A stretch of DNA of 64,000 nucleotides from Bacillota bacterium (GCA_050261335.1 JBLNDE010000009.1:30010-94009), one strand, 5' to 3'; shown: positions 6,365-49,364, numbered from the stretch's first letter. Made by a program: numbers and translations. The notes: generated by a model from the letters alone, not told the origin.

Positions 6365-6370
6365 CATGTG

Positions 6371-6985: not shown

Positions 6986-7011
6986 CACCTGCCTGGGACG
7001 TTCTTGAGGTG

Positions 7012-7671
7012 ATGCCTTTCTTGGACCAACGTCTCGCAAGAGCTGTGTCCGTTGGTTTCACAACGTTCTTACTTGCAATACTGGTGAACTTCGTGTCCAA
7101 GATACTCCTGGGTCGCGTCGGGCTGGTTCTTGGACTTTTTGTTCTGTTGGGTATAGTCTTCATCGGGGTTGCGTTCGACGTCATCGGGACCGCTTCGACC
7201 GCCGCGAAAAGACAGCCGTTCCATGCGATGGCCGCGAAGAGGGTTTACGGCGCCCGGCAGGCCCTCCGGATCGTGCGATCCGCCGACCGCGTGGCGAACT
7301 TCTGCAACGACGTGGTGGGCGACATGGCGGGCACCGTGAGTGGAGCGATCGGAGCCAGCATAGTCATACGATTGATGATGGTCATGCCTCCTCGCGTCAG
7401 CGAGACTGTGGTGAGCACCATCGTCGTAGGGATCATCGCGGGCCTCACCGTCGGGGGCAAGGCCTGGAGCAAGAACATGGCCGTGAACGACGCCGAGCGG
7501 ATCGTGCTCGCTGCCGGCAAGATCATAGCCGGGATCGAGTCGGTCACAGGGGTGACGTTCCTTCGTCACAAGAGGTCGAACCACCGCAAGCGTGGCCGAC
7601 CGAGGGAGAGCCCGTGTAGACAAGACCGGAACCGGAAACGGAGCGATAACGAGAGTGGTACGACTCCTTGA
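7012..7671 (+). CDS. oapA: OLE-associated membrane protein OapA-like (ORF extends to 6979)
   Basis: 4-5 TM helices, ~219 aa, GAGGTG RBS; position between the non-coding gene and dxs. Confidence 0.5.
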   Translation: MPFLDQRLARAVSVGFTTFLLAILVNFVSKILLGRVGLVLGLFVLLGIVFIGVAFDVIGTASTAAKRQPFHAMAAKRVYGARQALRIVRSADRVANFCNDVVGDMAGTVSGAIGASIVIRLMMVMPPRVSETVVSTIVVGIIAGLTVGGKAWSKNMAVNDAERIVLAAGKIIAGIESVTGVTFLRHKRSNHRKRGRPRESPCRQDRNRKRSDNESGTTP

Positions 7672-9643: not shown

Positions 9644-9816
9644 GGGTGCTGGGGTCGCCGGTGCTTGCCAGGGCGGGGCGCCTGGGATTTGGCTGGCCCG
9701 TGCGCCGAATTCGAACGAGGCGCGCCGCGAGCGCGCCGTCCCCGGAGTGCAACACCGCCAACACTGGACAAGACCCGCCCGCTGAAAAGAGCGCGAACTT
9801 GTGGCGATCTACTTAG
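9606..9816 (+). repeat. MITE-like dispersed repeat, copy A (full length)
   Basis: CCAAGTATGGCGCCA...GTGGCGATCTACTTAG termini and GTTGCCGGTG...GCAACACCGGCAAC internal inverted repeat; >85% identical to the copies at 40954 and 52638. Confidence 0.8.
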
Positions 9817-10746
9817 GTGGCAGGGGTAGACGATGCTGTTGAGAAAGTAGGCGTCCCCGGGGGGTATGAAGCCCTGGACCGCGAGGAAACGGGCAAGGCC
9901 GCGGGGGCCCGTCCGGAGCGGCGCGCCGAGACGCGCGCTCGCCTGGACGTGCTGCTCGTGGAACGCGGCCTCTTCGAGACCAGAGAAAAGGCGCGCCGCG
10001 CCGTCATGGCCGGAGAGGTCCTGGTGGACGGAGTTCGGGAGGACAAGCCCGGCACCAGGGTCTCCCGTTCAGCCGCCATCGAGCTCAGACCGTCGCGGGA
10101 GCCATACGTCAGCAGAGGCGGCGAGAAGCTGGAGAAGGCCCTCGACGAATTCGGCGTGGACGTGTCAGGCAAGGCCGCCATCGACGTGGGTGCGTCAACA
10201 GGCGGGTTCACCGATTGCCTGCTCCGTCACGGGGCGAGGCGGGTCTACGCGGTGGATGTCGGCTACGGGCAGCTTGCGTGGGAACTGCGCAGCAACCCCA
10301 GGGTCGTGGTGCTCGAGCGCACGAACGTAAGGTACCTCGAGCCGGGGGCCGTGCCCGAACAGGCTGACATCTGCACCATAGACGTCTCGTTCATATCCAT
10401 AATGAAGTTTCTCGAGCACCTCCTGACGTTCCTCTCCCCCGGCGCCGCCGTCGTGGCGCTCGTCAAGCCCCAGTTCGAGGCGGGAAGGGAGAAGGTGGGG
10501 AAGGGCGGGGTCGTGCGGGATCCGGAGGTGCATGCTGAGACGCTCCTGCGGGTGATAGAGTTCATGCAAACGTGCGGCCTGGAGATCCGCGGCCTCACTT
10601 ACTCCCCGATAAAGGGCCCGGCAGGAAACATCGAGTTTCTGGTGTATGCAGTAAAGGGACAGCAGGGCGGGGCGGCAGCTGCTATCGAGGCCGTCGAGCG
10701 AAGGGTATGCGAGGTGGTGGGCGCGGCCCACCGCGCCCTCGACTGA
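9817..10746 (+). CDS. tlyA: TlyA family 16S/23S rRNA (cytidine-2'-O)-methyltransferase
   Basis: S4 domain + FtsJ-like MTase (RLDVLLVERGL...DVGASTGGFTD); N-terminal ~45 aa extension uncertain. Confidence 0.85.
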   Translation: MAGVDDAVEKVGVPGGYEALDREETGKAAGARPERRAETRARLDVLLVERGLFETREKARRAVMAGEVLVDGVREDKPGTRVSRSAAIELRPSREPYVSRGGEKLEKALDEFGVDVSGKAAIDVGASTGGFTDCLLRHGARRVYAVDVGYGQLAWELRSNPRVVVLERTNVRYLEPGAVPEQADICTIDVSFISIMKFLEHLLTFLSPGAAVVALVKPQFEAGREKVGKGGVVRDPEVHAETLLRVIEFMQTCGLEIRGLTYSPIKGPAGNIEFLVYAVKGQQGGAAAAIEAVERRVCEVVGAAHRALD

Positions 10747-10843
10747 GCGTGGGATCACAGGGTAGACATGGGCTGATCCAGCGACAGGGCTCGCGCCCGG
10801 CAGGCTGCGCGTGAGTTGTCGTACAGGCAGGGGATTACGGAAG

Positions 10844-11701
10844 ATGAGGATTGGCCTGATAACACATCTCGGGAAACACGCGGCGGTGGACGCGGCGAAG
10901 GAGCTCTTGAGATTCCTCCAGACGCGCGGTGTGGAGGTGCTGCTCGATCCCGAATCGGCCCGTGAGTTCGACCGTCCCGGCATGTCCTTCGGCGAGATCG
11001 CTATCGGGGAGAAGATCGACCTCGCTGTGGTCCTCGGCGGTGACGGCGCCCTTCTCAACGCAGCCCGCCGCCTTGCCGGCAGCGAAGTCCCCATCCTTGG
11101 CGTAAACGTCGGCCACCTCGGCTTTCTCACCGAGGTTGAGCTGCCCGACATCTACGAGGCGATCGACCGGGTTCTCGCGGGCCGATACGCCGTAGAGGGA
11201 AGGATGATGCTCCGCGCACAGGTGACGCGAGCGGCCAGAGGGATCGTGGGAGAGTTCGTCGGTCTCAACGATGTGGTCGTCACGAAGGGCGCATTCGCCA
11301 GGATGATAAGGCTCAAGACGTACATCGGACCGAACTTCATTGGAACGTATCCTGCTGACGGCGCGATAGTGGCGAGTCCCACGGGCTCCACAGGGTACTC
11401 GCTGTCTGCAGGGGGTCCCATCGTGGACCCGGTGATCGATACGCTGATAGTGACGTTCATCTGTCCTCACACCCTGGCGGCGAGATCCTTCGTGGCTTCC
11501 AAGAGTGACACGGTGAGAATAGTCGTATCCGCTCCGAGCGAGGAGGTCATGCTGACAGTCGACGGCCAGGTGGGCTTCCGGCTGGAAAACCGTGACGAAG
11601 TGCTGGTGGAGGCGGCCACGACCAGGACGCGCCTTGTGAAGCTCGGGCGTCGCAGCTTCTACGAGGTCCTCAGGACCCGCCTTGCGGAGGGGAACGTGTA
11701 G
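10844..11701 (+). CDS. nadK: NAD kinase
   Basis: GGDGALLNAARR motif; ORF extends to 10811. Confidence 0.85.
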   Translation: MRIGLITHLGKHAAVDAAKELLRFLQTRGVEVLLDPESAREFDRPGMSFGEIAIGEKIDLAVVLGGDGALLNAARRLAGSEVPILGVNVGHLGFLTEVELPDIYEAIDRVLAGRYAVEGRMMLRAQVTRAARGIVGEFVGLNDVVVTKGAFARMIRLKTYIGPNFIGTYPADGAIVASPTGSTGYSLSAGGPIVDPVIDTLIVTFICPHTLAARSFVASKSDTVRIVVSAPSEEVMLTVDGQVGFRLENRDEVLVEAATTRTRLVKLGRRSFYEVLRTRLAEGNV

Positions 11702-12191
11702 GAAGGTGAAAGCCTTGAAGGCAAAGCGCCATGCCAGGGTGCTCAAGATCATCAGGGACAGGGTGGTCGAGACCCAGGAGGATCTCGCCCGCGAACTTCG
11801 TAAGGAAGGCTTCAAAGTCACTCAGGCGACCGTATCTCGCGATATAAAGGAGCTTCGAATAACGAAGCTGCCGATGAGCGACGGGCGGTACCGCTACGGC
11901 CTTCCCCGCGAGCACTCGCGCGAAGAGGCCCACAGGCGGCTCGCGAGGCTCTTCGCCGATTCGGTCATCGCCGTCGACTGGAGCGAGAACCTCGTTGTCG
12001 TGAAGACCCTGACCGGCAACGCTCATGCGGTGGCCGCAGCCATCGACGAGGCGGATTTCAAGGAGGTCGTGGGCACCATCGCCGGCGACGACACGATTCT
12101 GGCGGTGGTCCGGCCGAAGTCCGCCGTGCCCGAGGTGCTCGCGAGGTTCAACAAGCTGCGAAAGCCTTCGCCGGAGGAACGGGATGTCTGA
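11682..12191 (+). CDS. argR: Arginine repressor ArgR/AhrC (true start probably GTG 11706 or TTG 11715)
   Basis: Winged-helix N-terminus + C-terminal Arg-binding domain (GDDTILAVVRP). Confidence 0.85.
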   Translation: MRRGTCRKVKALKAKRHARVLKIIRDRVVETQEDLARELRKEGFKVTQATVSRDIKELRITKLPMSDGRYRYGLPREHSREEAHRRLARLFADSVIAVDWSENLVVVKTLTGNAHAVAAAIDEADFKEVVGTIAGDDTILAVVRPKSAVPEVLARFNKLRKPSPEERDV

Positions 12192-12235
12192 GTGTGAATT
12201 CAGAAATCCATGTGGGTCTGGGACAAGCTTCCGGG

Positions 12236-12370
12236 TTGCCGGTGCTTGCTAGGGCGGGGCGCTCTCGATTCGGCAGGCCTGAATGCCTGATCTGACGAGG
12301 CGAGCCGCAAGCGCGCCGTCCCCGGAGCGCAACACCGGAAACCTATGGAAAAGTGGCGGTGATTTCTGAA
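12236..12370 (+). repeat. MITE-like repeat, copy B (5'-truncated, diverged)
   Basis: GGGTTGCCGGTGCTTGCTAGGGCGGGGCGC...GCGCCGTCCCCGGAGCGCAACACCGG shared with the other copies. Confidence 0.6.
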
Positions 12371-12398
12371 CCCGCGCTGGGCCGGGTGGTGAGCTGAC

Positions 12399-14162
12399 GT
12401 GCTTCTTGCGCTTCAAATCAGGGACTTCGCCATTGTCGACGAGGTCGAGCTGGAGTTCGAGGACGGGTTCAACGTCCTGTCAGGCGAGACCGGGGCCGGA
12501 AAGTCCATCATCATCGGCGCCGTGACGCTTCTCCTCGGCGGGCGGGCCTCGGTAGACCACATCCGCACAGGTGCGGACGAGGCGGTCATCCACGGGACGT
12601 TCGCAGTCCCGAAAGCGTCGCCAGCGCGCCGGGCCATCGAGGACCTGGGCATCGATGTCGGCGATGACGACCTCGTCGTCATATCACGCACCATCTCGAG
12701 ATCCGGGAGGAATCAGTGCAGGGTCAACGGGCGCCCTGTGACTCAGGCGATGCTTTCGGGCATCGGTGAGCGACTCGTGGACATCCACGGCCAGCACGAA
12801 CATCAATCACTGCTCCGGGTGGCCCGGCACATGGAGTTCCTGGACGAGTTCGGCGGCGCGCAGGCGCTGGGTCTGCGCGAGCAGGTACGGTTGCAGTACG
12901 AGCGCATGATCGAGCTGGAGGCGGCCCTTGCGGCCCTCCGTTCCGGCGAACGGGAGAGGGCTCAGCGAGTCGACCTTCTCGAGTTCCAGGCGCGCGAGAT
13001 CGACGCCGCGCGGCTTTCGCCCGGAGAGGACGTGCAGCTTGCGAAAGACCGGGCGGTGCTGGCGGCCGCGGACCAGCTCTACGCCCACGCCAGCGCGGCG
13101 TACGCGGCGCTGCGCGGAGACGATTCAGGCTCAAGTGGTGCCGCAGACGCTATCGCCGCGGCCGTGTCGGAGATCGAGGCAGTGCTGAAGGTGGACGATT
13201 CGGTTAAGGGCGCAAACGACCTTCTGCAGAGCGCCCTCGCGGCGTGCGAGGAGTCCGCAAGGGCGATCCGTGTGTATAGGGACGGAATCGAGGTGGACCC
13301 CGCGCGGCTCGCGCAGATCGAGGAGCGACTCGCGGCCATAGAGCGTCTGAAGAGGAAGTACGGCGACACGGTGGACGAGATCCTCGAGTATCGCCGCAGG
13401 ATCGGCGATGAGCTCGCGAGGGTCGCGTCCTCGGAGGAGGAGATCGCCGCCGCAGAGAACGAGCTTGCGAGGGTCAAGGCGTCGCTTGGCTCGCTCTCCG
13501 CATCCCTTCACGAGGTGCGCGCTCGGGCTGCCCGGGACCTCGAGGAGCGGGTGAAGGCGGAGCTTGCGGACCTCAACATGGGGTCATCCGTCTTGTGTGT
13601 GAGCTTTTCCGCGAAGGAGGACCCGCGAGGGGTGCCTGTGGGCGATAGACTGCTCGCTGTCGGCCCGGACGGCACGGACACCGTGGAGTTCCTCCTTTCG
13701 GCGAATGCCGGAGAGCCTCCAAAGCCTCTCGCCCGCATAGCGAGCGGTGGCGAGATCTCCAGGGTCATGCTGGCGCTCAAGTCGATCCTCGCTTCTGTGG
13801 ACGAGGTGGACACTCTCATCTTTGACGAGGTCGATGCCGGAATCGGCGGGCGCACCGCGACGGCGGTAGGGGAGAAGCTTGCGGCCACGAGTCGCATGCG
13901 GCAGGTGGTGTGCGTGACCCACCTTGCGCAGATTGCAAGCATGGCGTGCGTCCATTTCGCCATTAGCAAGGTCGAGAAAGAGGGACGCATCCGCACGGTT
14001 GTGGAAAGGCTCGACGGGGAGGCACGGATCGCGGAGATCGCACGGATGCTCGGCGGAGCCGACCTTACGCCTACCACCTTCAAGCACGCCAGGGAGATGC
14101 TACAGGCTGGAGCAGATGCAAGGCGGCGTGACACGCGCCGACGCCAGGCTCTCGCCACCTGA
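12399..14162 (+). CDS. recN: DNA repair protein RecN
   Basis: SMC-like N-terminal Walker A (LSGETGAGKSIIIGA) and C-terminal signature; conserved position after argR. Confidence 0.9.
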   Translation: MLLALQIRDFAIVDEVELEFEDGFNVLSGETGAGKSIIIGAVTLLLGGRASVDHIRTGADEAVIHGTFAVPKASPARRAIEDLGIDVGDDDLVVISRTISRSGRNQCRVNGRPVTQAMLSGIGERLVDIHGQHEHQSLLRVARHMEFLDEFGGAQALGLREQVRLQYERMIELEAALAALRSGERERAQRVDLLEFQAREIDAARLSPGEDVQLAKDRAVLAAADQLYAHASAAYAALRGDDSGSSGAADAIAAAVSEIEAVLKVDDSVKGANDLLQSALAACEESARAIRVYRDGIEVDPARLAQIEERLAAIERLKRKYGDTVDEILEYRRRIGDELARVASSEEEIAAAENELARVKASLGSLSASLHEVRARAARDLEERVKAELADLNMGSSVLCVSFSAKEDPRGVPVGDRLLAVGPDGTDTVEFLLSANAGEPPKPLARIASGGEISRVMLALKSILASVDEVDTLIFDEVDAGIGGRTATAVGEKLAATSRMRQVVCVTHLAQIASMACVHFAISKVEKEGRIRTVVERLDGEARIAEIARMLGGADLTPTTFKHAREMLQAGADARRRDTRRRQALAT

Positions 14163-14403
14163 CCCCGGCCATTTCCGCTGATCCAGCCGTTGCCGCTATT
14201 GCAGCCGCTGCGCCCGCCACGAGTGCTGTGTCCTATGTGACCGCTACGGCCGCCACGGCCGTCGCAACGGCCGAAGCGACTGCAAGAAGCCCTTCCCGGC
14301 CCGCCGAACCTCAGCACGTCAATGGAGGAAATCCAGCACGGACGGCGAATATACCTCATGGTACGTCCCGGCCCATCGAGGCACGAGTCTTTTCCGGGAG
14401 AGG

Positions 14404-14742
14404 ATGGCGGAAGCGGCGATGACTGGCGCCAGGATCACGGTCCACCCGATACTGGAGTTCAAGGAGGGCAGGAAAGTCAGGTTCACGTTCGACGGCCAGG
14501 TCCTCGAGGGATACGAGGGAGAGCCGATAGCGGCGGCACTTCACGCTGCTGGCGTGCGGGTGCTGGGAGAAAGCCCCAAGCTGAAGAGGCCCAGGGGCTT
14601 TTTCTGCGCCATAGGCAACTGCTCGTCGTGCCTCATGACGGTGGACGGCCGCCCAAACGTGAGGGTCTGCACGGAAAAGCTGCGCGAAGGCATGCGCGTG
14701 GAAACTCAAGCGGGGAAGGGTGTGCTCCTTGCGAACGACTGA
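14404..14742 (+). CDS. Small [2Fe-2S] subunit of a multi-subunit flavoprotein dehydrogenase (HcnA / sarcosine-oxidase-alpha N-terminal-like)
   Basis: 112 aa, CAIGNCSSC...C cluster motif. Confidence 0.7.
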   Translation: MAEAAMTGARITVHPILEFKEGRKVRFTFDGQVLEGYEGEPIAAALHAAGVRVLGESPKLKRPRGFFCAIGNCSSCLMTVDGRPNVRVCTEKLREGMRVETQAGKGVLLAND

Positions 14743-15832
14743 GATTTGCGTGATCGGTGCGGGGCCCGCGGGCCTGTGCGCTGCGATCGCCGCCCGCGAC
14801 ATGGGCGCCCGCGTGACGTGCGTGGATTCGGGAGACAGGCCGGGCGGGCAGCTTGTCAAGCAGACCCACAAGTTTTTCGGGTCGAGGGCCGAGTTTGCCG
14901 GGAAGAGAGGGATTGACATAGCCGGCATGCTCGCGGACCGGATCCGCGATGACCCCATGGTGGAGTTCATGCTGGACAGCACCGTCATAGGGTTCTACGA
15001 CGATGGGGCCATGGGCATCGAACACGACGATGCTCTCACTTTCCTCAAGGCCGAGCGCATTGTGTGCGCCACGGGGGCTTCCGAGAAGATGCTCGCGTTT
15101 CCGGGCAACGATCTTCCCGGTGTATACGGGGCAGGGGCGGTCCAGACTCTCATGAACGTGTACGGTGTGAGACCCGGCAGGGCAGTGCTCATGGTCGGCG
15201 CGGGCAACATCGGCCTCATCGTGAGCTACCAGTTGCTCCAGGCGGGGGTGGAGGTGGTGGCAGTCGTAGAGGCCATGCCACAGGTCGGGGGGTACGATGT
15301 CCACGCCCGCAAGATACAGCGTGCGGGCGTGCCGATCCTGACGTCCCACACGGTGAAGGCGGCCCACGGCACGAGGGTGGTCGAGGGGGCCACGGTGGCG
15401 GCGCTCGGGAGCGACTTTCGGCCGATCCCTGGCACAGAGGAGTATTTTCAGGTGGATACCGTGTGCCTCGCAGTGGGGCTGACTCCGCTTGCGGACCTCC
15501 TCTGGCAGGCAGGGTGCAGGATGGCGTACATCCCCGAGCTCGGGGGCCACGTCGCCCTGCGAGACGAGAACTATGAGACGTCGCGCCGGGGCTTTTACGT
15601 AGCGGGCGATCTCGCAGGAATAGAGGAGGCCTCATCCGCGATGATAGAGGGCTCCATCGCCGGCCTATCGGCGGCGCAGTCGCTGGGGCACGAGGCGCCG
15701 GATCTCGAGGAGAGGCTGGCGACGGCGAGAGCCGAACTTGCCGCCCTCCGCAGCGGTCCGAAAGGCCGGAAGGTGCGGATCGGAATCGAGCGACTCATGC
15801 TGCTCGCAAGGGAGGTCGGCGTCGTTGCGTGA
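14720..15832 (+). CDS. FAD/NAD(P)-binding oxidoreductase subunit (PdhA / HcnB / opine-oxidase A-like)
   Basis: Two Rossmann GxGxxG motifs (VIGAGPAG; VGAGNIG). Confidence 0.7.
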   Translation: MCSLRTTEICVIGAGPAGLCAAIAARDMGARVTCVDSGDRPGGQLVKQTHKFFGSRAEFAGKRGIDIAGMLADRIRDDPMVEFMLDSTVIGFYDDGAMGIEHDDALTFLKAERIVCATGASEKMLAFPGNDLPGVYGAGAVQTLMNVYGVRPGRAVLMVGAGNIGLIVSYQLLQAGVEVVAVVEAMPQVGGYDVHARKIQRAGVPILTSHTVKAAHGTRVVEGATVAALGSDFRPIPGTEEYFQVDTVCLAVGLTPLADLLWQAGCRMAYIPELGGHVALRDENYETSRRGFYVAGDLAGIEEASSAMIEGSIAGLSAAQSLGHEAPDLEERLATARAELAALRSGPKGRKVRIGIERLMLLAREVGVVA

Positions 15833-16331
15833 CAAGCCGTGCGTCGGGCCGGGGACGCAGGGGCGCATCCCTGACGCCGCGAGGCGGGCGCGTGGACCCT
15901 GCGCCGTCATCGAGTGTTTCGAGGAGATCCCGTGCGATCCATGCCATGACGCGTGCCACCGGGGGGCCATCCGGCCGTTCGACGACATCAACCACCTTCC
16001 CGAGGTGGACTTCGACAGGTGCAACGGCTGCGGCGCCTGCATCTCAGTGTGCCCCGGCCTGGCGATTTTCGTGGTGGACGAGACCTGGAAGGATGACCTG
16101 GCGGTCGTGAGGCTGCCGTACGAGTTCCTGCCGCTGCCGTCGCCCGGTGACACCGTGGCGGGGCTTGATAGGTCCGGCCGCGAGTGCTGCGCCGCCACGG
16201 TGGTCCGGGTCGAAAGGGCGAAGAGGCAAGACAGGACGGCTGTCGTGTGGATAGAGGTGCCGAAACCCCTCTCGATGGAGATAAGGCACGTCCGTGTGGG
16301 AGGGAGCGCTATTGGCTCGCGCGAAGGCTGA
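15825..16331 (+). CDS. Ferredoxin-like 4Fe-4S subunit
   Basis: CNGCGACISVCP motif; TTG start 10 nt after AGGGAGG RBS; ORF extends to 15738. Confidence 0.55.
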   Translation: MRDKPCVGPGTQGRIPDAARRARGPCAVIECFEEIPCDPCHDACHRGAIRPFDDINHLPEVDFDRCNGCGACISVCPGLAIFVVDETWKDDLAVVRLPYEFLPLPSPGDTVAGLDRSGRECCAATVVRVERAKRQDRTAVVWIEVPKPLSMEIRHVRVGGSAIGSREG

Positions 16332-16665
16332 GTGTGAGCCCGGCGAGGGCGACCGTGGAGACGCCGCCGGCGATCCGGTGGTGATGTGCCGCTGCGAGGA
16401 CGTCACGCTCGACGAGATTCGTGACCTCATCGCAAGGGGTTACACGACGATGGAGGAGATCAAGCGCATCACGAGATGCGGCATGGGACCGTGCCAGGGC
16501 AGGACGTGCAGGCAGCTCGTGCTGGCGGAGATCGCCAGGGCCACCGGGAAAGACATCGCGAGCGTCGCCCCGCCAAGGTTCAGGCCGCCCACGAAGCCCG
16601 TGCGCCTGGGCGCGGGCGTGAGACTCGCCGCCGAGGAAGGTGATGGCCGTGAAGAGGTGCGCTGA
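16294..16665 (+). CDS. BFD-like [2Fe-2S]-binding domain protein (start may be ATG 16384)
   Basis: CRCEDVT...CGMGPCQGRTC BFD motif. Confidence 0.55.
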   Translation: MWEGALLARAKAECEPGEGDRGDAAGDPVVMCRCEDVTLDEIRDLIARGYTTMEEIKRITRCGMGPCQGRTCRQLVLAEIARATGKDIASVAPPRFRPPTKPVRLGAGVRLAAEEGDGREEVR

Positions 16666-17794
16666 CGCCGTTGTCATCGGCGGGGGAGTCGTGGGCACGT
16701 CCATCGCCTATCACCTGGCGAGACGCGGTTTTGGCACAGTGGTCCTCGTAGAGCGGTCGTACCTTGCGAGCGGGTCCACGGGCCGCTGCGGGGCAGGAGT
16801 AAGACAGCAGTGGGGCACGAAGTTGAACTGCCTCCTCTCCCGGGAGAGTGTGCGGATGTTCGAGCGGATGGAGGAGGAACTCGCCTACGATCGGAGCATC
16901 GAGTTCAAGCAGGGCGGATACCTGCTCCTTGCCTACACCGATCGCGAGATGAACCAGTTCATGAAGAACGTCCAGCTCGAACAGAGCCTCGGGATCCCGG
17001 CGAGCCTGCTCACTCCCGCTGAAGCGAAGGCCATCGTGCCGATGCTGAACGCAAGCGACGTTCTCTGTGCGACATACTGCCCGACGGACGGGCACGCGAA
17101 CCCCTTTCACGCGACATATGCTTACGCCGGTGCAGCGCGCAGGCTCGGTGCAGAGATCATGACTTTCACAGAAGTGAAGGACGTCGTCGTGCAGGACGGC
17201 AGGGTCGCGCGGGTCGTCTGCGACGGGGAAACCATCGACACCAGGGTCGTGGTGAACGCCGCGGGGCCGTATTCGGGGCTTGTGGCGCGGATGGCAGGGC
17301 TCGAGATCCCCTTCTGGGCGGAGCGCCACCAGATCCTCGTTACGGAGCCGGTCGAGCCCGTGCTGCGGCCCATGGTCATGTCGTTCTCGCGGCGGATCTA
17401 TTGCCAGCAGACCCCGCACGGCAGTTTCATCATGGGGATGGGCGACCCGAGCGAGCCGCACGGATTCAGCACGGAGAGCAGTTGGAGATTCCTCGTGGAC
17501 ATGGCACGCGAGATAACGAGGGTTCTGCCTCCCGTGGGGAACCTCAAGGTCGTCAGGCAGTGGGCTGGGTTATACGACATGACGCCTGACGCCCATCCGA
17601 TACTTGGGGCGACGCCGGTCGAAGGCTTTTACCTCGCGTGCGGGTTCTCAGGGCACGGCTTCATGCTGGCTCCGGTGACGGGAAAGCTCATCTCCGAGAT
17701 CATCTGTGATGAGCAGCCGTCCATAGATATAACCGGCCTCGACCTCGGCCGGTTCGAGCGAGGGGAGCTCGTGGTCGAGCCATCGGTTGTATAG
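16643..17794 (+). CDS. FAD-dependent amino-acid dehydrogenase/oxidase beta subunit (sarcosine oxidase beta / L-proline dehydrogenase PdhB / HcnC-like)
   Basis: DAO family, N-terminal VIGGGVVGTSIAYHLARRG. Confidence 0.75.
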   Translation: MAVKRCADAVVIGGGVVGTSIAYHLARRGFGTVVLVERSYLASGSTGRCGAGVRQQWGTKLNCLLSRESVRMFERMEEELAYDRSIEFKQGGYLLLAYTDREMNQFMKNVQLEQSLGIPASLLTPAEAKAIVPMLNASDVLCATYCPTDGHANPFHATYAYAGAARRLGAEIMTFTEVKDVVVQDGRVARVVCDGETIDTRVVVNAAGPYSGLVARMAGLEIPFWAERHQILVTEPVEPVLRPMVMSFSRRIYCQQTPHGSFIMGMGDPSEPHGFSTESSWRFLVDMAREITRVLPPVGNLKVVRQWAGLYDMTPDAHPILGATPVEGFYLACGFSGHGFMLAPVTGKLISEIICDEQPSIDITGLDLGRFERGELVVEPSVV

Positions 17795-17833
17795 CGTTGT
17801 GCAGCGCAGCATCTGTCCCTGTGTGGCGGTGGT

Positions 17834-17974
17834 CGCCAAGTATGACGCCACAGGTTAGCACCGCTTTCCTTGACGGTGTTGGGGCTCACGAGCCGTCCCC
17901 GGAGGGCAACACCGGCAACCCTGGCGAGGACCTGCGCGCTGAAAAGCAGCGCGAATCTGCGGCGGTCTACTCAG
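17834..17974 (+). repeat. MITE-like repeat, copy C (internally deleted)
   Basis: Both termini and the GCAACACCGGCAAC arm are present; the central ~70 nt is missing. Confidence 0.65.
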
Positions 17975-18135
17975 GGCAGCGGTGGCCGCAAGGGCGCAGG
18001 GCGACCGCCATAGCAGCATGTCAGATCGCGGGCGCTCTCGAGTCACTTCGTGGATGGAAGCCCGGGGGTAACCGCAGACCGACTTGTGCGAGCTTCCGAA
18101 CTCACGCATGGAGATCACGTGGGAGGGGAGAGAGA

Positions 18136-18534
18136 ATGAAGCTTGACCTCGATCGATGCACGGGCTGCAGGCTCTGCCAGCTCGTATGCTCTGTTGTGAA
18201 CTTCTGCGAGAACAACCCGAAGAAGGCCGGGATCCGCGTGATCTCCAGGCTCTTCACCGATGCCTGGTACGATGTGGTCGTGTGCGACCAGTGCGGCGTA
18301 TGCATCGACGTCTGCCCCGTGGGGGCCATCAGCATGGGGGACGGTGTTGTGCGGATCGATCCCGACACGTGCACCAACTGCGGTGCGTGCGTGGAGACGT
18401 GCCCGAACGGTGCGCTGTTCTCCCACCCTGACGTCGACTACCCCATAAAGTGCATCGCGTGCGGGGAGTGCGCGAGGCTGTGCCCGAGAGGGGTCCTCGA
18501 CGCCCTGGTCGAAGTCGGAAAGGTGGCGAGCTAG
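18136..18534 (+). CDS. Polyferredoxin, four CxxCxxCxxxCP motifs
   Basis: Cys motifs read directly; GGGAGGGGAG RBS; ORF extends to 17797. Confidence 0.75.
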   Translation: MKLDLDRCTGCRLCQLVCSVVNFCENNPKKAGIRVISRLFTDAWYDVVVCDQCGVCIDVCPVGAISMGDGVVRIDPDTCTNCGACVETCPNGALFSHPDVDYPIKCIACGECARLCPRGVLDALVEVGKVAS

Positions 18535-20397
18535 ATGCGGGAGATGCACGGATATGCCGGCACCGTCTTGAGGATCAACCTGTCCACGAGGGCGGTGTCG
18601 CGAGAGCCGCTCACGGAGGATCTCGCGGCCGACTACATAGGCGGGCGGGGCTTCGGAGCCAGCTTCGTCTGCCGCGAACTCCCTGCAGGCACGGACCCGC
18701 TAGGCCCCGGGAACAAACTCGTGGTGGCCGCAGGGCCATTCTCCGGCGTCTTCCTGCCGAGCGGGGCCAAGACCAGTATTTCGGCGAAGAGCCCTGCAAC
18801 GGGCCTGTACGGCGACAGCAACATAGGGGGCCACCTCGCAAGCGAACTCAAGTATGCAGGGTATGATGCCATCGTCATCGAAGGGAAGGCTCCTCAGCTA
18901 TCCTACCTCTTCATCGAAGACGACCGGGTAGAGGTCCGCCCCTGTGAGTACCTCCGGGGGATGGGCGCGATAAAGGCGGAGAAGGTCTTCAAGGACGAGC
19001 TCGGCGACGAATTCCAGATCGCCACGATCGGGCCTGCAGGCGAGAACATGGTGGTATTCGCCTCCGTGAACCACGACATCGGGCGGCAGGCCGGAAGGTG
19101 CGGCATGGGCGCGGTCATGGGATCCAAGAACCTGAAGGCCATCGCAGTGCGGGGCACCGGCGGCGTGCCCGTGGCCGACATGGGGGCCCTCCGCAAGGTG
19201 GCCGACGAGATGTTCTCGGCCCTTGCCGCGAACCCTGCGCTCAAAGTATGGCAGGACCAGGGCCTCGCCCAGGTCACCACGTGGTCCAACTCCATCGGGG
19301 CGCTTCCCACCCGCAACTTCAGGCAGAACTTCTACGAAAACGCCGAAGCCCTGAGCGGCGAGCGCATGCGCAGCGACATCCACGTGCGCGACAAGGCCTG
19401 CTTCGCGTGCCCGATGGCGACGGGCAAGTACTGCCGCGCGCGCCACCGGGGTGAGACGGTGTTCGTCGAGGGCCCCGAGTACGAGACCACAGCCCTCATC
19501 GGAAGCAACTGCGCTCTCCAGTCCATCGAGGAGGTGGCCTTCGCCAACTACATGTGCGACGAGCTGGGCCTCGACACCATCTCCGGCGGCAGCGCGGTGG
19601 CCTTCACCATGGAGTGCTTCGAGCGGGGCGTAATCACGAAGGAGGACACCGGCGGCATCGAAGCACGCTTCGGAAGCCTGGACGCCTTCGTCGAGATCGT
19701 GAAGCTCATAGCAGCCCGCCAGGGGATAGGCGAACCCCTCTCGAGGGGCGTGAGGGCCGCGGCGGAGGCCTGGGGAGGCGGAAGCAAGGATTTCGCGATC
19801 CAGGTCAAGGGCCTCGAGTGGAGCGGGTACGAGTCGCGCGGGGCGCCGTCCATGATGCTCGCTTACATGACGTGCGACATCGGCGCGCACCACAACCGGG
19901 CATGGTCCATCACCCACGACATCGCCGTGGGGCGCAACGTGATCCAGGGCAAGGCTGCGAAGGTCATCGAGCTGCAGCACGTAAGGCCCCTCTTCGACTG
20001 TCTCGGGGTATGCCGGCTGCAGTGGGTCGAGCTGGGACTGCCGCTCGAATACTACGCCAGGCTCTACCCGGCGGTAACGGGGCGCGAGGATTCGTGGGAC
20101 GATCTCCTTCTCAAGTCCGAGCGTATCTGGAACCTCGTACGCGCCTTCGCCGTGCGCGAAAGGCCCGACTTCGGCAGAGCGGACGACCAGCCGCCGAGAA
20201 GGTTCTATACGGAGCCCGTCCCTGATGGACCCCTCGCGGGATCGCGAATCACCCGCGAGGACCTGGACACGCTTCTGGACGAGTATTACGACCTTCGAGG
20301 CTGGGACAGGGGCGGAAGGCCCACGGCGGCCACACTCGAAAGGCTTGGCCTTGGTGACGTCGCGTCCGAGCTTCAGGCGATGGGGCGGATCTCATGA
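18535..20397 (+). CDS. aor: Tungsten-containing aldehyde:ferredoxin oxidoreductase (AOR family)
   Basis: AOR N-terminal domain (GYAGTVLRINLSTRAV...) and C-terminal domains. Confidence 0.85.
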   Translation: MREMHGYAGTVLRINLSTRAVSREPLTEDLAADYIGGRGFGASFVCRELPAGTDPLGPGNKLVVAAGPFSGVFLPSGAKTSISAKSPATGLYGDSNIGGHLASELKYAGYDAIVIEGKAPQLSYLFIEDDRVEVRPCEYLRGMGAIKAEKVFKDELGDEFQIATIGPAGENMVVFASVNHDIGRQAGRCGMGAVMGSKNLKAIAVRGTGGVPVADMGALRKVADEMFSALAANPALKVWQDQGLAQVTTWSNSIGALPTRNFRQNFYENAEALSGERMRSDIHVRDKACFACPMATGKYCRARHRGETVFVEGPEYETTALIGSNCALQSIEEVAFANYMCDELGLDTISGGSAVAFTMECFERGVITKEDTGGIEARFGSLDAFVEIVKLIAARQGIGEPLSRGVRAAAEAWGGGSKDFAIQVKGLEWSGYESRGAPSMMLAYMTCDIGAHHNRAWSITHDIAVGRNVIQGKAAKVIELQHVRPLFDCLGVCRLQWVELGLPLEYYARLYPAVTGREDSWDDLLLKSERIWNLVRAFAVRERPDFGRADDQPPRRFYTEPVPDGPLAGSRITREDLDTLLDEYYDLRGWDRGGRPTAATLERLGLGDVASELQAMGRIS

Positions 20398-20627
20398 AAG
20401 TCGTAGTGGAGATCTCGAAGATCCTCCTGGCCGTGCGGCCTGGGCTTGCCGAGAGAGCGGAGCTCGATCTTCCTGAAGGGTCAACAGTGGCAGATGCTCT
20501 TGCTGCAGCAGGTCTTGCGCAGGGATTATGGGGTATCGTGCTTGTCGGAGACAGGGTGACGAACGTCTCGGCGAAGCTGGCGCCGGGCGACAGGATCACG
20601 GCCCTCCCACCGGTCTCGGGCGGCTGA
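20394..20627 (+). CDS. MoaD/ThiS-family sulfur-carrier protein
   Basis: 77 aa ending in Gly-Gly; overlaps aor stop. Confidence 0.65.
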   Translation: MKVVVEISKILLAVRPGLAERAELDLPEGSTVADALAAAGLAQGLWGIVLVGDRVTNVSAKLAPGDRITALPPVSGG

Positions 20628-20659
20628 GTAAGGATTCGGAGATGCTCCGGACGCTGGCA

Positions 20660-20698
20660 GGGGTTGCCGGTGACTCAAGGAGAGAGCGCAACACCGCG
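20660..20698 (+). repeat. Short fragment of the MITE-like repeat (inverted-repeat core only)
   Basis: GGTTGCCGGTG...GCGCAACACCGC. Confidence 0.35.
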
Positions 20699-21015
20699 AG
20701 CCCTGCAACCGCCGGAGAACGCGGAGGAACTGACGGGCCCTCACTCAGGCTGGTCGGACGGCAACACAAAAGAACACAGGAGACGGTGTGCGAGACAACC
20801 CCGTCCGCGCATAGCATGTAATGTGTCGCCCTCCGGGGAGGGCACGAGACTTGCGCCGGGCGGGGTTGGTGCATTTGGAGAAGCCCAGGATCACGAACGT
20901 GTGGGCCACAGAGCACGCGGACGCTGTGTGCCGTCGGATGCTTTCGCGCCTTGTCATCGAGGCGACGCTTCCGGTCCTCCATCGTATCCGCGCGGCATCC
21001 CCGGGCGAGGTGCGA

Positions 21016-22434
21016 ATGGATCTCCCGGGATCCGACCTCGCGATGGCTCCGGCAACGATAGTGGTGAACGACGGTCTCCTAGTCGACATTGCGGTGACAG
21101 GCGGCTCCCCACAGCCCTCGGTGGTGGCCAGGCTGGAGCACACGCCGTCGTGGGGCGTGACGCAGGCAGCAGGGGTCCCGGCGCGCCTGATCGTGGACTT
21201 CGACCGAAGCCCTGTACGAGCCATCTTCGAGGGCAGAGTGGTGGTAGTGGACCCGGGGCACGGTGGAAGCGACCCCGGAGAGCACGGTCCCGTCAACCTC
21301 CTCGAGAAGAACGTCGTCCTCGACATGGCACGCGTGCTGTCCACCCGCCTCGAGCTTGCCGGGGCGGCCGTGGTGATGACCCGGACCTCCGACGAAGGGG
21401 TCCCGGCGGCAAAGCGGTTCGCCCAGGCGAAGGATGCTGGGGCCGACGCCTTCGTGAGCATCCACACCTCCGGATCTTCCGACCGGACCGTCGCGGGATC
21501 CCGCACGCTTCACCTTCCTGACGCCGAGAGCGAGACGCTCGCCAGGTACATACAGTCGTCCCTCGCCGAGAGACTGCCTGTGATGACGAAGGGCGTGGCA
21601 AGGTATCCGGCCAGACTCCCCGCTAACCCGGGGATGCCCTGCGTGTTTGTGGAGGTGGCCACCATCACCAACTGGGTGGAGGAGGGGTGGTTTCGCAGCA
21701 GCACCTTCAAGGAGCGGGCTGCGTCCGCCATCATGACCGGCCTCAAGCGCTACTTCGCCGGACGGGCCGGGCACCGCCGGGAGGCGGGAGAGGTTCCCGT
21801 CAAGGTCGACGCGATCCCCATCAGGACTCACCTTGTGGGAGAGGACGAGAAGATCGCTGACGTGGTGCGCCGATACGTCCGGGGGATCGCGCACCCCGGG
21901 GACGTGGTCGCGGTGGCCGAGAGCGTCGTCGCGATCACGCAGGGCAGGGCCGTGCTGCCCGGGTCGGTGCGTCCCGGGCCTCTGGCGCGCGTGCTGTGCA
22001 AGCTGCCGGGCAAGGACGGCAGCCTCGCAACACCGCCTGCGATGCAGCTTGCCATAAACGAGGCGGGGGTCGCCAGGGTGCTGCTGGGTACCGCAGCGGC
22101 AGGGATCGGGCGGGTGCTCGGGCGAAGGGGGGATTTCTTCAGGGTGGCCGGGCCTTCGCTCGCCCAGATTGACGACATCGCGGGCACGATGCCTCCCTAT
22201 GACAAGCACGTCATCCTGGGGCCCGCAGACCCCGATGAGGTTGCGCGCGAGATCCGGGAGGCCGTCGGGGTTGACGTCGTGGTCGTCGACGTGAACGACA
22301 TCGGCTGCGTCGATATCCTGGGCTCGACCCTCGCTGGCAAGACCGATTGGGTGTCCCGGGCGCTGGCCCACAATCCCTTCGGCAACGATGACCAGCAAAC
22401 GCCCGTAGTTGTCCTCAAGCCGCACAGGACTTGA
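21016..22434 (+). CDS. Fusion protein: N-terminal AMIN-like segment + N-acetylmuramoyl-L-alanine amidase (Amidase_3, CwlD-like) + C-terminal CofE-like (F420-0:gamma-glutamyl ligase-like) domain
   Basis: VVVVDPGHGGSDPG...ADAFVSIHTSG amidase motifs; C-terminal IPIRTHLVGED...GDVVAVAESVVAITQGRAV and VVVVDVNDIG resemble CofE; no internal stop; ORF extends to 20821. Confidence 0.55.
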   Translation: MDLPGSDLAMAPATIVVNDGLLVDIAVTGGSPQPSVVARLEHTPSWGVTQAAGVPARLIVDFDRSPVRAIFEGRVVVVDPGHGGSDPGEHGPVNLLEKNVVLDMARVLSTRLELAGAAVVMTRTSDEGVPAAKRFAQAKDAGADAFVSIHTSGSSDRTVAGSRTLHLPDAESETLARYIQSSLAERLPVMTKGVARYPARLPANPGMPCVFVEVATITNWVEEGWFRSSTFKERAASAIMTGLKRYFAGRAGHRREAGEVPVKVDAIPIRTHLVGEDEKIADVVRRYVRGIAHPGDVVAVAESVVAITQGRAVLPGSVRPGPLARVLCKLPGKDGSLATPPAMQLAINEAGVARVLLGTAAAGIGRVLGRRGDFFRVAGPSLAQIDDIAGTMPPYDKHVILGPADPDEVAREIREAVGVDVVVVDVNDIGCVDILGSTLAGKTDWVSRALAHNPFGNDDQQTPVVVLKPHRT

Positions 22435-22492
22435 CCTTCCGAACCGAACTCGAGGCATGACGGCGGACCTACAGTCATAGTACGGTACCGCC

Positions 22493-24139
22493 ATGAAATC
22501 TCAGTCGTTCCTCAAAGGAACCGCGATTCTGGTAGCCGCGGGCATCGCCACGAAAGTGCTCGGGGCGCTCTTCACCATTCCCCTGGCCCGCCTCATAGGC
22601 GCGGAAGGCGTCGGCCTCCTCCACCTGGCGTCACCCGTGTTCTCAATGGCTCTCGTCCTCTGCGTCTCGGGGCTGCCGGTGGCCACGTCGAAGCTGGTTG
22701 CGGAACGCCTGGCCCGGGGCGACCCCTCCGGCGCAAGGCAGGTCCTGCTGGTGTGCCTTGGGCTCGTCATCCCCGTGGGGATGGTCCTCTCGGCGGCGCT
22801 GTATGCGGGGGCCGGCTTCATAAGCACGTTCGTCGTCAGAGACCCGAGAGCCTACTTCCCCATGAAGTACCTTTCTCCCGCTCTGGCGCTCGCCGCTGTC
22901 TCGAGCGCGCTTCGCGGTTATTTTCAGGGCCACCGGACCATGATTCCGACTGCCGCCTCACACGTGGTGGAGCAGGTCGTCAGGCTGGTGGTGGGCCTGA
23001 GCCTCGCATACGCCTTTCTTCCGAGGGGCGCGCAGTGGGCCGCGGCCGGTGCCGCCGCCGGAAGCTCCACAGGAGCTGCAGCGGGCCTTGTCATGCTCGG
23101 GGCGTTCTACCTTGCGGCGCCCGTGGATCGTCCGGCCCCATCGACGGCGCGACGACTGCCCTCCAGGAGATGGCCCGATACGCGGCGCCGGCCGCGGCGT
23201 ACTCTGCCGGGGAATGCGGCAGGTGAGACCCTCCGGCAACTTCTGTCCCTTGCCGGCCCCGCAACAGCTGCCGCGCTCACCCTTCCTCTGCTCGACGCCA
23301 TCAACGCCGTCGTAGTGCCGGCCAGGCTGCAGCAGGCGGGCTGGTCCGTGACTGACGCCACGCGCCTGTACGGGCACCTCTCCGTGATGGCTGTCGGCCT
23401 CGTGGCCCTGCCGGGCGTGGTGACCTCTGCGGTCGCCACGAACCTGGTGCCCCAGGTAGCCGCGGCGGACGCGGGGGGCGAGAGACGTCGTGCGAGAATG
23501 CTGGCCCGGCAAGCCATAAGGAGCGCTCTCGTGATAGGCCTTCCGGCCTCCGCCGGGCTCGCGGTGTTACCCACCCAGATATGCGCCTTGCTCTTCAAAG
23601 ATCCGGCAGGCGGAGTGCCTCTTTCATCCATGGCCTTCGCCTCCGTCTTCTTCTGCCTTCAACAGACCACGGCAGGGGTCCTGAACGGGTCGGGGAAAGT
23701 CATTGTGCCCGCAAGAAACGGGATCGTCGGCGCCATCGTCGCGGGCGCCGTAAACTACGTTCTGACCGCCATGCCGGAGGTCGGCGTCCGTGGGGCAGCC
23801 GTTGGCACAGGCCTTGCCTTCCTTGTGACGGCCGCTCTCAACACCGGCGCCGTGGGCAGGCTCACCGGCGAGGGTATCGGCCTCCTGGCCGCCGGGTGGA
23901 GGATCCTCGCAAGCTGCGCCTTGATGGTGCCGGTGGTCGGCATGGTGTCCCGCGTGCTCCTCGCACGTACGTTGAGTAACTCGCTCTCCACGTCCGCGGC
24001 GATCCTTGCGGGCATCCTCGCGTACAGCCTCGGCCTCGTCGTCCTCGGCGAGCTTGCCTACAGGGAAGTAGCCCTCATCCCCTTCATCGGCCCTCGCCTT
24101 GCCTGCGCGCTCCAGCGCGCAGGCGTCCTGCGAAGGTAG
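22493..24139 (+). CDS. spoVB: SpoVB-like MOP-superfamily polysaccharide/lipid-II flippase
   Basis: 548 aa, ~14 TM; N-terminus typical of SpoVB/MurJ-like proteins. Confidence 0.7.
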   Translation: MKSQSFLKGTAILVAAGIATKVLGALFTIPLARLIGAEGVGLLHLASPVFSMALVLCVSGLPVATSKLVAERLARGDPSGARQVLLVCLGLVIPVGMVLSAALYAGAGFISTFVVRDPRAYFPMKYLSPALALAAVSSALRGYFQGHRTMIPTAASHVVEQVVRLVVGLSLAYAFLPRGAQWAAAGAAAGSSTGAAAGLVMLGAFYLAAPVDRPAPSTARRLPSRRWPDTRRRPRRTLPGNAAGETLRQLLSLAGPATAAALTLPLLDAINAVVVPARLQQAGWSVTDATRLYGHLSVMAVGLVALPGVVTSAVATNLVPQVAAADAGGERRRARMLARQAIRSALVIGLPASAGLAVLPTQICALLFKDPAGGVPLSSMAFASVFFCLQQTTAGVLNGSGKVIVPARNGIVGAIVAGAVNYVLTAMPEVGVRGAAVGTGLAFLVTAALNTGAVGRLTGEGIGLLAAGWRILASCALMVPVVGMVSRVLLARTLSNSLSTSAAILAGILAYSLGLVVLGELAYREVALIPFIGPRLACALQRAGVLRR

Positions 24140-47226: not shown

Positions 47227-47304
47227 CGGGGCGTGGCGCAGTTTGGCTAGCGCGCCTGAATGGGGTTCAGGAGGTCGCGAGTTCAAGTCTCGCCGCTCCG
47301 ACCA
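47227..47304 (+). tRNA. tRNA-Pro (anticodon GGG), CCA encoded
   Basis: Manual cloverleaf: acceptor CGGGGCG/CGCUCCG, anticodon stem CCUGA/UCAGG with loop AUGGGGU, T-arm GCGAG-UUCAAGU-CUCGC. Confidence 0.8.
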
Positions 47305-49279: not shown

Positions 49280-49364
49280 GCGAGAGTGGCGGAACGGCAG
49301 ACGCGCCAGACTTAGGATCTGGTGGGTAACCCCCGTGAGGGTTCAAATCCCTCCTCTCGCACCA
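49280..49364 (+). tRNA. tRNA-Leu (anticodon UAG), CCA encoded, long variable arm
   Basis: Manual fold; close match to the bacterial tRNA-Leu scaffold (UGGCGGAA..GGCAGACGCGC D-arm, GAGGGUUCAAAUCCCUC T-arm); preceded by a TTGATC-16-TGGTACAAT promoter at 49176-49203. Confidence 0.8.

Follow-up and report, generated by a model that had tools for sequence, protein, structure and literature searches.

A split-alpha relative of the archaeal dye-linked L-proline dehydrogenase in a Bacillota bacterium, and its probable pairing with a putative tungsten-type aldehyde oxidoreductase

What does a bacterium of the Bacillota oxidise with a flavoprotein complex of five subunits, and which enzyme takes over the product? 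The question is raised by a stretch of 64,000 nucleotides from a Bacillota bacterium (GCA_050261335.1, JBLNDE010000009.1:30010-94009), below called the window, which has a base composition of 62-69% G+C and carries its genes mostly on the + strand. At 14404-17794 a first-pass annotation had recognised five overlapping or tightly coupled genes, which it likened to the hetero-oligomeric L-proline dehydrogenase (PDH) of Thermococcales and to the opine oxidase and HCN synthase (HcnABC) families, with proline, sarcosine, an opine and glycine as candidate substrates. From homology and gene context, we infer that these genes, here O1 to O5, encode a bacterial member of the archaeal dye-linked L-PDH family in which the alpha subunit is split; the bacterial form would be new, the family is known. 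We further propose, with moderate confidence, that O1-O5 oxidise L-proline and that the products of two genes further downstream, O6 and O7, oxidise glutamate semialdehyde to glutamate in the place of the delta-1-pyrroline-5-carboxylate (P5C) dehydrogenase. The operon-level pairing of a PDH with a tungsten-type aldehyde:ferredoxin oxidoreductase (AOR) in that place is probably new, and was not found in the literature searched, the coverage of which is incomplete.

The five subunits and their archaeal counterparts

The five open reading frames (ORFs) all lie on the + strand where they had been placed, and Pfam agrees with the types assigned to them. O1 (14404-14742, 112 aa; Fer2_4, E = 2e-31) encodes the small [2Fe-2S] subunit, and the cysteine motif that had been noted in it as CxxxxCxxC...C reads C68-x4-C73-x2-C76-x12-C89 in the translation. 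O2 (14720-15832, 370 aa) is an FAD-/NAD(H)-binding oxidoreductase (Pyr_redox_2, E = 8e-33; Pyr_redox over residues 156-220), with an N-terminal GxGxxG (GAGPAG) and a second dinucleotide fold, GAGNIG...VVE, predicted to be of the NAD(H) type. O3 (15825-16331, 168 aa) is a gamma-like 4Fe-4S protein with Fer4-type Pfam matches: when aligned with six distant relatives, eight cysteines are invariant, as C-x5-C-x2-C-x3-C and C-x2-C-x2-C-x3-CP, and a C-terminal domain is conserved as well. O4 (about 16312-16665, about 117 aa; SO_alpha_A3, E = 2e-15; Fer2_BFD, E = 5e-12) is the delta-like BFD-type [2Fe-2S] protein, the pattern C-x-C...C-x4-C being invariant in an alignment of its relatives. O5 (16640-17794, 384 aa; DAO, E = 1.5e-80) is the beta subunit, a DAO-family FAD amine dehydrogenase predicted to be catalytic; it has an N-terminal GxGxxG...E FAD fold and an Arg-Gln-Trp (RQW) motif. 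Cysteine motifs of the O1 and O4 types are listed for the enzyme superfamily, that of alpha being C-x4-C-x2-C-x11-12-C, and Arg-x-Trp is described there as a putative FMN site between alpha and beta (PMC4575208).

Three of the starts call for comment. The ORF list puts that of O3 at 15738, and there is no start codon from 15831 to the Cys-rich region; the TTG at 15825, with GGGAGG upstream at a 9-nt spacing, gives an N-terminus that aligns with relatives and is most likely the start, which makes O3 168 aa long, the length of the Pyrococcus horikoshii gamma. For O4 the start is probably the TTG at 16312, preceded by GGGAGGGAG (alternatives are 16294 or 16378-16384), and for O5 probably the ATG at 16643. 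Successive genes from O1 to O5 overlap by 23, 8, 20 and 23-26 nt. Since neighbouring genes overlap, by 8-26 nt as measured, the tight coupling that had been noted is real.

A heterotetrameric alpha-beta-gamma-delta form of the dye-linked L-PDH is known from Thermococcus profundus and P. horikoshii (Kawakami et al. 2004, 2005, as cited in PMC4575208 and PMC8704557). The sequence of the beta chain 1Y56_B was rebuilt from a printed alignment and used as a query for Thermococcales homologues, the loci of which were inspected. In P. horikoshii (our locus L088, 4799-8134) a second beta (P0210, 377 aa) was found within a four-gene operon of the order alpha-gamma-delta-beta, with an alpha of 479 aa (Fer2_4 plus Pyr_redox_2), a gamma of 168 aa (Fer4) and a delta of 88 aa (BFD); this operon is of the alpha-beta-gamma-delta type named in PMC8704557 and PMC4575208. 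In BLASTP comparisons, O1 is 60% identical to residues 2-103 of the alpha subunits of P. horikoshii and T. peptonophilus, O2 is 52-53% identical to residues 118-477 of the archaeal alpha, O3 40-41% to the gamma and O4 50-52% to the delta. For O5 the identity is 42% with the T. peptonophilus beta and 35% with the P. horikoshii beta, both of the alpha-beta-gamma-delta type, and 38-39% with the beta of the alpha4beta4 type. The likeness to the Thermococcales enzyme seen in the first-pass annotation is thus borne out for each subunit and for the gene order, and the subunit-by-subunit matches lead us to read O1-O5 as the archaeal set of four subunits in which alpha has become two genes. O4 also aligns to the C-terminal 80 or so residues of the alpha4beta4-type alpha (34-40% identity with residues 404-485), in keeping with the remark that delta resembles the C-terminus of that alpha (S2 Table note, PMC4575208).

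The position of O5 within the DAO family was examined in three ways. Against solved structures, its best match is 1Y56_B, a P. horikoshii PDH beta (305 bits, E = 9e-90), followed at a distance by SoxB (178 bits), dimethylglycine dehydrogenase (126 bits), glycine oxidase (115 bits) and D-arginine dehydrogenase (63 bits). At the level of single residues, one histidine and one tyrosine are kept in all the bacterial and archaeal PDH betas compared, O5 included, and the histidine is missing from OdhB, SoxB and DadA. We take the pair to be H225 and Y251 of the P. furiosus enzyme. These two residues are said to have been mutated in that enzyme by Monaghan et al. in 2007. Finally, in a neighbour-joining tree with bootstrap, in which the references were OdhB1, OdhB2, SoxB and DadA, taken from a plasmid search that yielded no HcnC, the bacterial five-gene betas form one clade (89%) and the archaeal PDH betas another (100%). 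O5 falls with the PDH betas and not with the monomeric oxidases among which it might have clustered, and the bacterial and archaeal PDH betas stand together apart from OdhB, SoxB and DadA, but the joint clade has only 65% bootstrap. A tandem of beta paralogues follows one accessory set in another locus (L080, 2312-4814), with 62% and 50% identity to the window beta; it recalls the 'subunit exchange' described for OdhB1/OdhB2.

The genes that follow beta, in the window and in relatives

The feature as first drawn, 14404-17794, ends too early: the unit extends to a polyferredoxin gene, an AOR gene and a MoaD-like gene, all on the + strand. O6 (18136-18534), which has a strong ribosome-binding site before its ATG at 18136, encodes a polyferredoxin of the AorA/WOR5-beta type with multiple Fer4 matches and about four 4Fe-4S motifs; its matches in the PDB are 9mqx_E, 8c0z_C, 6x1o_B and 4z3w_E. 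O7 (18535-20397; AFOR_N, E = 1e-73; AFOR_C, E = 1e-121) is an AOR of a clade resembling formaldehyde:ferredoxin oxidoreductase (FOR), here AOR_I, and is predicted to be a tungsten-type, aldehyde-oxidising enzyme. Its matches among solved structures are the FOR of P. furiosus (1B25, 466 bits) and AOR (1AOR, 406 bits), and its catalytic residues are conserved (Glu, Tyr and His, equivalent to E313, Y427 and H448). Its proximal 4Fe-4S motif, at about residue 290, is C-x2-C-x3-T-x3-C (CFACPMATGKYC), in which the third canonical cysteine is a threonine and a cysteine stands four residues on. The same motif is found in L001, L003, L004, L008, L010-L012 and L014, both cysteines in L019, and the canonical cysteine only in L023 and L048, which looks like a ligand shift within one lineage; AOR_I proteins more distant from the window have retained the canonical cysteine. 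O8 (20394-20627; ThiS, E = 1.6e-6) is a ThiS/MoaD-like protein ending in ...VSGG, presumably a sulfur carrier for the pterin cofactor. O7 starts at the base next to the stop of O6 and the start of O8 overlaps the stop of O7, so that the three genes are directly coupled.

How general is this arrangement? When the gamma alignment was scanned against one genome per species, relatives were found in at least 588 species, and when 1.84 billion representatives were searched exhaustively with HMMER, 352 clusters at 50% identity matched with E ≤ 1e-10. The counts below are those of the best 80 of the at least 588 species, i.e. the nearest to the window gamma and not a random sample. Their hosts include Desulfotomaculia (Desulfovirgula, Desulfofundulus, Desulfosporosinus, Desulforamulus), Clostridia, Thermosediminibacter, Halanaerobiales, Atribacterota, Calditrichales, Cloacimonas and others; the gamma of the Bacillota metagenome-assembled genome Yes71-24 (L008) is 96% identical to that of the window. 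In practically all 80 loci, across several phyla, the five genes stand on one strand in the order O1-O2-O3-O4-O5, which is therefore not a chance arrangement. Natural fusions occur among the relatives (O2+O3, O3+O4, O2+O3+O4 and a permuted O2+O3+O1+O4; P0242, P0262, P0244, P0306, P0271), and they speak for the accessory subunits forming one electron-transfer module. Publicly, the proteins of this family are named only 'sarcosine oxidase subunit beta', 'FAD-dependent oxidoreductase' or 'FAD-binding oxidoreductase'.

The downstream slot was defined as the gene that starts 30-820 nt after beta on the same strand, and its contents were counted by ORF clustering around the loci, confirmed by tblastn, in the 64 of the 80 loci with enough downstream sequence. 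It holds a window-like AOR_I in 10 loci, a second type, AOR_II, in 20 (an AOR of either clade in 30), an aldehyde dehydrogenase (P5C dehydrogenase) in 11, and something else, neither AOR nor P5C dehydrogenase, in 23. The AOR_II proteins are about 720 aa long and only 27-29% identical to AOR_I (best solved relative, 192 bits); they keep the catalytic Glu/Tyr/His, with a cluster motif C-x3-C-x3-C and a 14-residue insertion after the fourth cysteine. Their genes (e.g. in L006, L020, L021, L026, L034, L038 and L040) lie about 2.3-2.7 kb after the gamma start and are mostly preceded by a polyferredoxin gene of their own, none being detected in L071. Among the slot aldehyde dehydrogenases, that of L016 scores 824 bits with TIGR01236 (cut-off 614) and that of L024 769 bits with TIGR01237 (cut-off 660), both P5C dehydrogenase equivalogs, and against the alpha-ketoglutarate semialdehyde dehydrogenase model they reach 234-373 bits, for a cut-off of 770. 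A D-hydroxyproline route by way of the latter enzyme was rejected on these NCBIfam scores.

In the beta tree, Desulforamulus, which has an AOR, groups with Desulfovirgula and Desulfofundulus, which have a P5C dehydrogenase (97% bootstrap). Betas with different partners thus interleave, and therefore the downstream partner has been repeatedly exchanged around one enzyme. The exchanged partners would belong to four aldehyde-oxidising families, two of them specific, by their model scores, for glutamate semialdehyde. The transport genes fit in: PutP, the sodium/proline symporter, lies directly 3' of beta in L036 (649 bits, equivalog cut-off 516), and a PutP-like symporter adjoins the two PDH gene sets of T. 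peptonophilus (L089). It is this context of P5C dehydrogenase and PutP that narrows the substrate to L-proline; of the candidates in the first-pass annotation, proline is favoured by the 11 loci with a P5C dehydrogenase and by L036, and sarcosine, an opine and glycine become unlikely from the same context.

Other recurrent neighbours are glutamate dehydrogenase, subunits of 2-oxoacid:ferredoxin oxidoreductase, Liv-type ABC and SNF transporters, GntR regulators and sigma-54 activators. Of 82 loci, 17 have a sigma-54 -24/-12 motif (TGGCAY-N5-TTGCW) at 20-75 nt 5' of O1, among them 12 of the 19 with an adjacent activator; the O1 of the window is not preceded by one. Within the 64-kb window, the only part of this genome covered, there is no gene for P5C dehydrogenase, PutP, glutamate dehydrogenase or a sigma-54 activator. 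About 31 kb from the cluster the window has a gene for a LivK-type binding protein (51426-52505, +), 57% identical to the product of the gene directly after the cluster of Atribacteria L007.

Proposed chemistry and its alternatives

In the scheme that homology and context suggest, for both enzymes' substrates as for the path of the electrons, O5 would oxidise L-proline to P5C at its FAD, and the electrons would pass to FMN at the beta/alpha interface, then to the [2Fe-2S] centres of O4 and O1, and on to the FAD that O2 binds; O3, with its two centres of 4Fe-4S type, would give access to carriers at the ferredoxin level. Glutamate semialdehyde arises from P5C by spontaneous hydrolysis (PMC4364671). 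The L-glutamate-5-semialdehyde so formed would be oxidised to glutamate by O7 with O6, reducing ferredoxin, the pair standing in for the NAD-dependent P5C dehydrogenase of other bacteria, and O8 would serve synthesis of the pterin cofactor. Glutamate semialdehyde would fit what is reported of FOR, the nearest solved relative of O7: according to a review, FOR has its lowest Km for glutaric dialdehyde (C5) and had glutarate bound in its crystal, from which the authors of the review infer a C5 semialdehyde substrate (PMC12096430).

Several observations weigh against this scheme. The identity of O5 to archaeal enzymes that have been characterised is no more than 35-42%, and AORs are not known to oxidise glutamate semialdehyde. 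Homology alone cannot fix the substrate, because an opine dehydrogenase subfamily (BjOpnDH2) is close to the archaeal L-PDH and yet inactive on proline (PMC4575208). Scans for sigma-70 promoters and terminators over 13900-21000 gave nothing above shuffled background. In the window, O5 and O6 are separated by a 341-nt gap in which lies a partial copy of a dispersed intergenic repeat (17872-17974, no strand assigned; repeat families D2 and D3 plus alignment), whereas in the relatives L003 and L004 (76-77% identical) the beta and polyferredoxin genes overlap without a gap. The metagenome contig L002 encodes a beta protein identical to that of L001 and has the same genes upstream, but its downstream part differs (after 11152), continuing into an aldo-keto reductase/Fer4 gene on the opposite strand instead of the polyferredoxin-AOR module; this may be a real rearrangement or an assembly chimera. 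To this must be added the 23 loci with another gene in the slot, and the fact that the loci counted were chosen for their nearness to the window gamma.

The last points bear on the first alternative, in which O1-O5 are a PDH and the AOR module is not its second step but a general aldehyde scavenger, or a co-located module for electron input or output. The slots without an aldehyde-oxidising gene and the identical beta of L002 without the module favour it, as does the usually broad spectrum of AORs (PMC12096430), but two distant AOR clades, each with its own polyferredoxin, fill exactly the slot of the P5C dehydrogenase; in 30 species of several phyla they are encoded 100-820 nt 3' of beta and in its orientation, and in L003 and L004 the coupling goes as far as the gene overlap mentioned above. 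We therefore hold a scavenger or accessory module to be unlikely.

A second alternative, improbable to the same degree, keeps the two-step logic but changes the substrate: another cyclic or secondary amine would give a semialdehyde (L-pipecolate giving alpha-aminoadipate semialdehyde, or hydroxyproline), and the AOR would oxidise that aldehyde. The archaeal alpha4beta4 enzyme is active on L-pipecolate besides proline (as cited in PMC4141209), a preference for C4-C6 di- or semialdehydes is on record for FOR-type enzymes (PMC12096430), and the modest beta identity to the archaeal enzymes leaves room for it. On the other side are the slot aldehyde dehydrogenases, which exceed the equivalog cut-offs for L-glutamate gamma-semialdehyde and score far lower for alpha-ketoglutarate semialdehyde, and the PutP gene adjoining beta in L036; for hydroxyproline in particular, there is no hydroxyproline epimerase or Pyr4H2C deaminase among the recurrent neighbours.

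It is also conceivable, though we think it rather doubtful, that all eight products form one electron-confurcating machine, in which low-potential electrons from the AOR, by way of the polyferredoxin and the 4Fe-4S gamma, would merge with those from proline at the alpha/beta flavin and go onto NAD+. The net reaction would be proline + 2 NAD+ + H2O -> glutamate + 2 NADH, and the predicted cofactor set is compatible with it. Oxidation of proline by NAD+ alone is uphill (about -120 mV versus -320 mV), and the oxidation of glutamate semialdehyde lies at about -580 mV. On these textbook potentials, confurcation would make proline oxidation feasible without quinone. The same textbook values put the reverse route, from glutamate to proline with NADH, near equilibrium overall, which counts for the last of the alternatives below.

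Two further readings survive less well. A demethylating dehydrogenase for an N-methyl amino acid of the sarcosine type, with free formaldehyde detoxified to formate by the FOR-like AOR, has on its side that alignments of O1, O2 and O4 fall in the N-terminal half of SoxA and that O5 aligns to the soxB model, that the nearest solved relative of the AOR is by name a formaldehyde:ferredoxin oxidoreductase, and that the folate-binding half of SoxA is absent, because of which formaldehyde would leave free. It is nevertheless quite improbable: the Sox models are missed by far (215 versus 529 bits for soxB, at most 151 versus 1164 for soxA), O5 shares 26% identity with SoxB and 35-42% with PDH betas, formaldehyde would give no reason for P5C dehydrogenase and PutP at the corresponding places, and genes for glycine, betaine or creatine are not among the recurrent neighbours. 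Least probable of all is an ATP-independent glutamate-to-proline route, in which the AOR would draw on reduced ferredoxin to convert glutamate to the semialdehyde and the flavoprotein complex would take P5C on to proline, for although AORs can reduce non-activated acids with low-potential donors (PMC12096430) and several carriers are halophiles (Halanaerobiales) that might need proline, the NAD-dependent P5C dehydrogenase of the same slot works oxidatively, and a catabolic role is what the uptake systems (PutP, Liv, SNF), the glutamate dehydrogenase, the 2-oxoacid oxidoreductase and the sigma-54 activators point to.

The locus joins in one operon an orthologue of the archaeal PDH and a FOR-like enzyme, the latter in a slot that genuine P5C dehydrogenases hold in sister species, and it makes a concrete prediction, a glutamate semialdehyde:ferredoxin oxidoreductase activity. 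What FOR-type tungsten enzymes oxidise in the cell is debated, a C5 semi- or dialdehyde being favoured (PMC12096430). The archaeal 'dye-linked' PDHs were assayed with artificial dyes, and the locus makes the question of their natural acceptor testable; it also bears on the oxidation of proline to glutamate in strict anaerobes, in which a pool of respiratory quinone may be absent. Confurcation, if true, would name the natural electron acceptor logic of the 'dye-linked' PDHs, give FOR-type tungsten enzymes a physiological substrate and add a new class of flavin-based electron confurcation. Re-annotation of the family would change the metabolic models of many amino-acid-fermenting and sulfate-reducing bacteria.

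The surroundings of the cluster can be described briefly. The genes dxs, tlyA, nadK, argR and recN (7592-14162) come 5' of O1, and a full-length OLE RNA (RF01071, 453 bits for a gathering threshold of 50) lies just 5' of dxs at 6366-7004 (+). Between 12000 and 23000, no riboswitch or leader was found by Rfam. The dispersed intergenic repeat, of about 212 nt and with ends that pair with each other, has full copies at 9606-9817 and 52638-52849 and, besides the partial copy in the O5-O6 gap, another at 12233-12342. It folds as RNA at -99 kcal/mol (z = -2.4) and had no Rfam match, the partial copies being scanned with relaxed settings (12000-23000) and the full copies at the gathering threshold only; it may be like a miniature inverted-repeat transposable element or a repetitive extragenic palindrome, or a structured RNA. 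Downstream of O8, a gene at 20821-22434 (+), kept at the same position in all close relatives, fuses Amidase_3 (N-acetylmuramoyl-L-alanine amidase) to an F420-ligase-like PF01996, as judged from the domains of the orthologues in L001, L003 and L004. Two tRNA genes (Rfam RF00005) lie at 47227-47301 and 49280-49361 (+).

Comparison with known systems

The closest known system is the archaeal alpha-beta-gamma-delta PDH. It has in common with O1-O5 the gene order alpha-gamma-delta-beta, the cysteine motifs of the alpha N-terminus, gamma and delta, the two dinucleotide folds of alpha, and the R-x-W motif and His/Tyr pair of beta; its gamma is a ferredoxin-like protein of about 19 kDa with Cys clusters, 168 aa long as is O3. 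Between the two, beta is the least conserved subunit. The archaeal alpha is one gene, whereas in practically all the bacterial loci it is split into O1 and O2, and the hosts are heat-loving archaea on one side, mesophilic to thermophilic anaerobic bacteria on the other. Moreover, AOR/polyferredoxin or P5C dehydrogenase genes are found 3' of the bacterial operons, and neither is present in the three archaeal loci examined. The alpha4beta4 PDH (PH1363/PH1364, PDB 1Y56), which contains FAD and FMN and is reported to bind ATP, supplies the best solved relative of O5 in its beta; unlike O1-O5, it lacks a gamma and carries delta as a part of alpha, to which O2 is only 26% identical.

HcnABC, OdhABC and the D-hydroxyproline dehydrogenase (alpha4beta4gamma4; PMC4575208) all have counterparts of O1 (a separate small Fer2_4 [2Fe-2S] subunit) and of O2 (an NAD/FAD subunit), and also a beta of the DAO family with the R-x-W FMN motif. 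They differ in having three subunits, with the BFD-type motif within alpha and no 4Fe-4S protein, where O1-O5 has O3 and O4 as separate subunits. OdhB1 and OdhB2 of the Ti plasmid share 25-32% identity with O5 and have no counterpart of His225, and the Ti-plasmid opine dehydrogenase locus (L091) has the genes B1, 2Fe-2S (C), A and B2, with no gamma and no separate BFD-like gene. The kinship with HcnABC and opine oxidase put forward in the first-pass annotation holds at the superfamily level and no closer. In the case of SoxABDG, O1, O2 and O4 correspond to positions 14-99, 169-486 and 522-594 of the SoxA model (TIGR01372; 58, 151 and 41 bits, cut-off 1164) and O5 matches the soxB model (TIGR01373; 215 bits, cut-off 529), its identity to SoxB being the 26% given above. 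SoxA is however a protein of about 960-1000 aa, and its C-terminal folate/GcvT half, together with the Sox gamma and delta, is absent from O1-O5, as judged against L092.

As to O6 and O7, the FOR of P. furiosus is a homotetramer without polyferredoxin (PMC12096430), whereas O7 is paired with O6. AorAB of Aromatoleum and WOR5/ASOR are AOR-polyferredoxin pairs, with partners (8c0z_C, 6x1o_B, 9mqx_E) that O6 resembles, but none of FOR, AorAB and the WOR5 pairs has been described beside an amine dehydrogenase. Identity of the cluster with the five-subunit WOR1 of Eubacterium/Acetomicrobium was considered and rejected, Wor1ABC being HydABC-like (PMC12096430).

Canonical proline catabolism (PutA, or ProDH plus P5C dehydrogenase) would have the same chemistry as that proposed here, from proline to P5C/glutamate semialdehyde and on to glutamate. 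The canonical ProDH is a TIM-barrel protein, unrelated to the DAO-family multi-subunit Fe-S flavoprotein, and the canonical P5C dehydrogenase is NAD-dependent, whereas the second enzyme of the window would be ferredoxin-linked and of the tungsten type.

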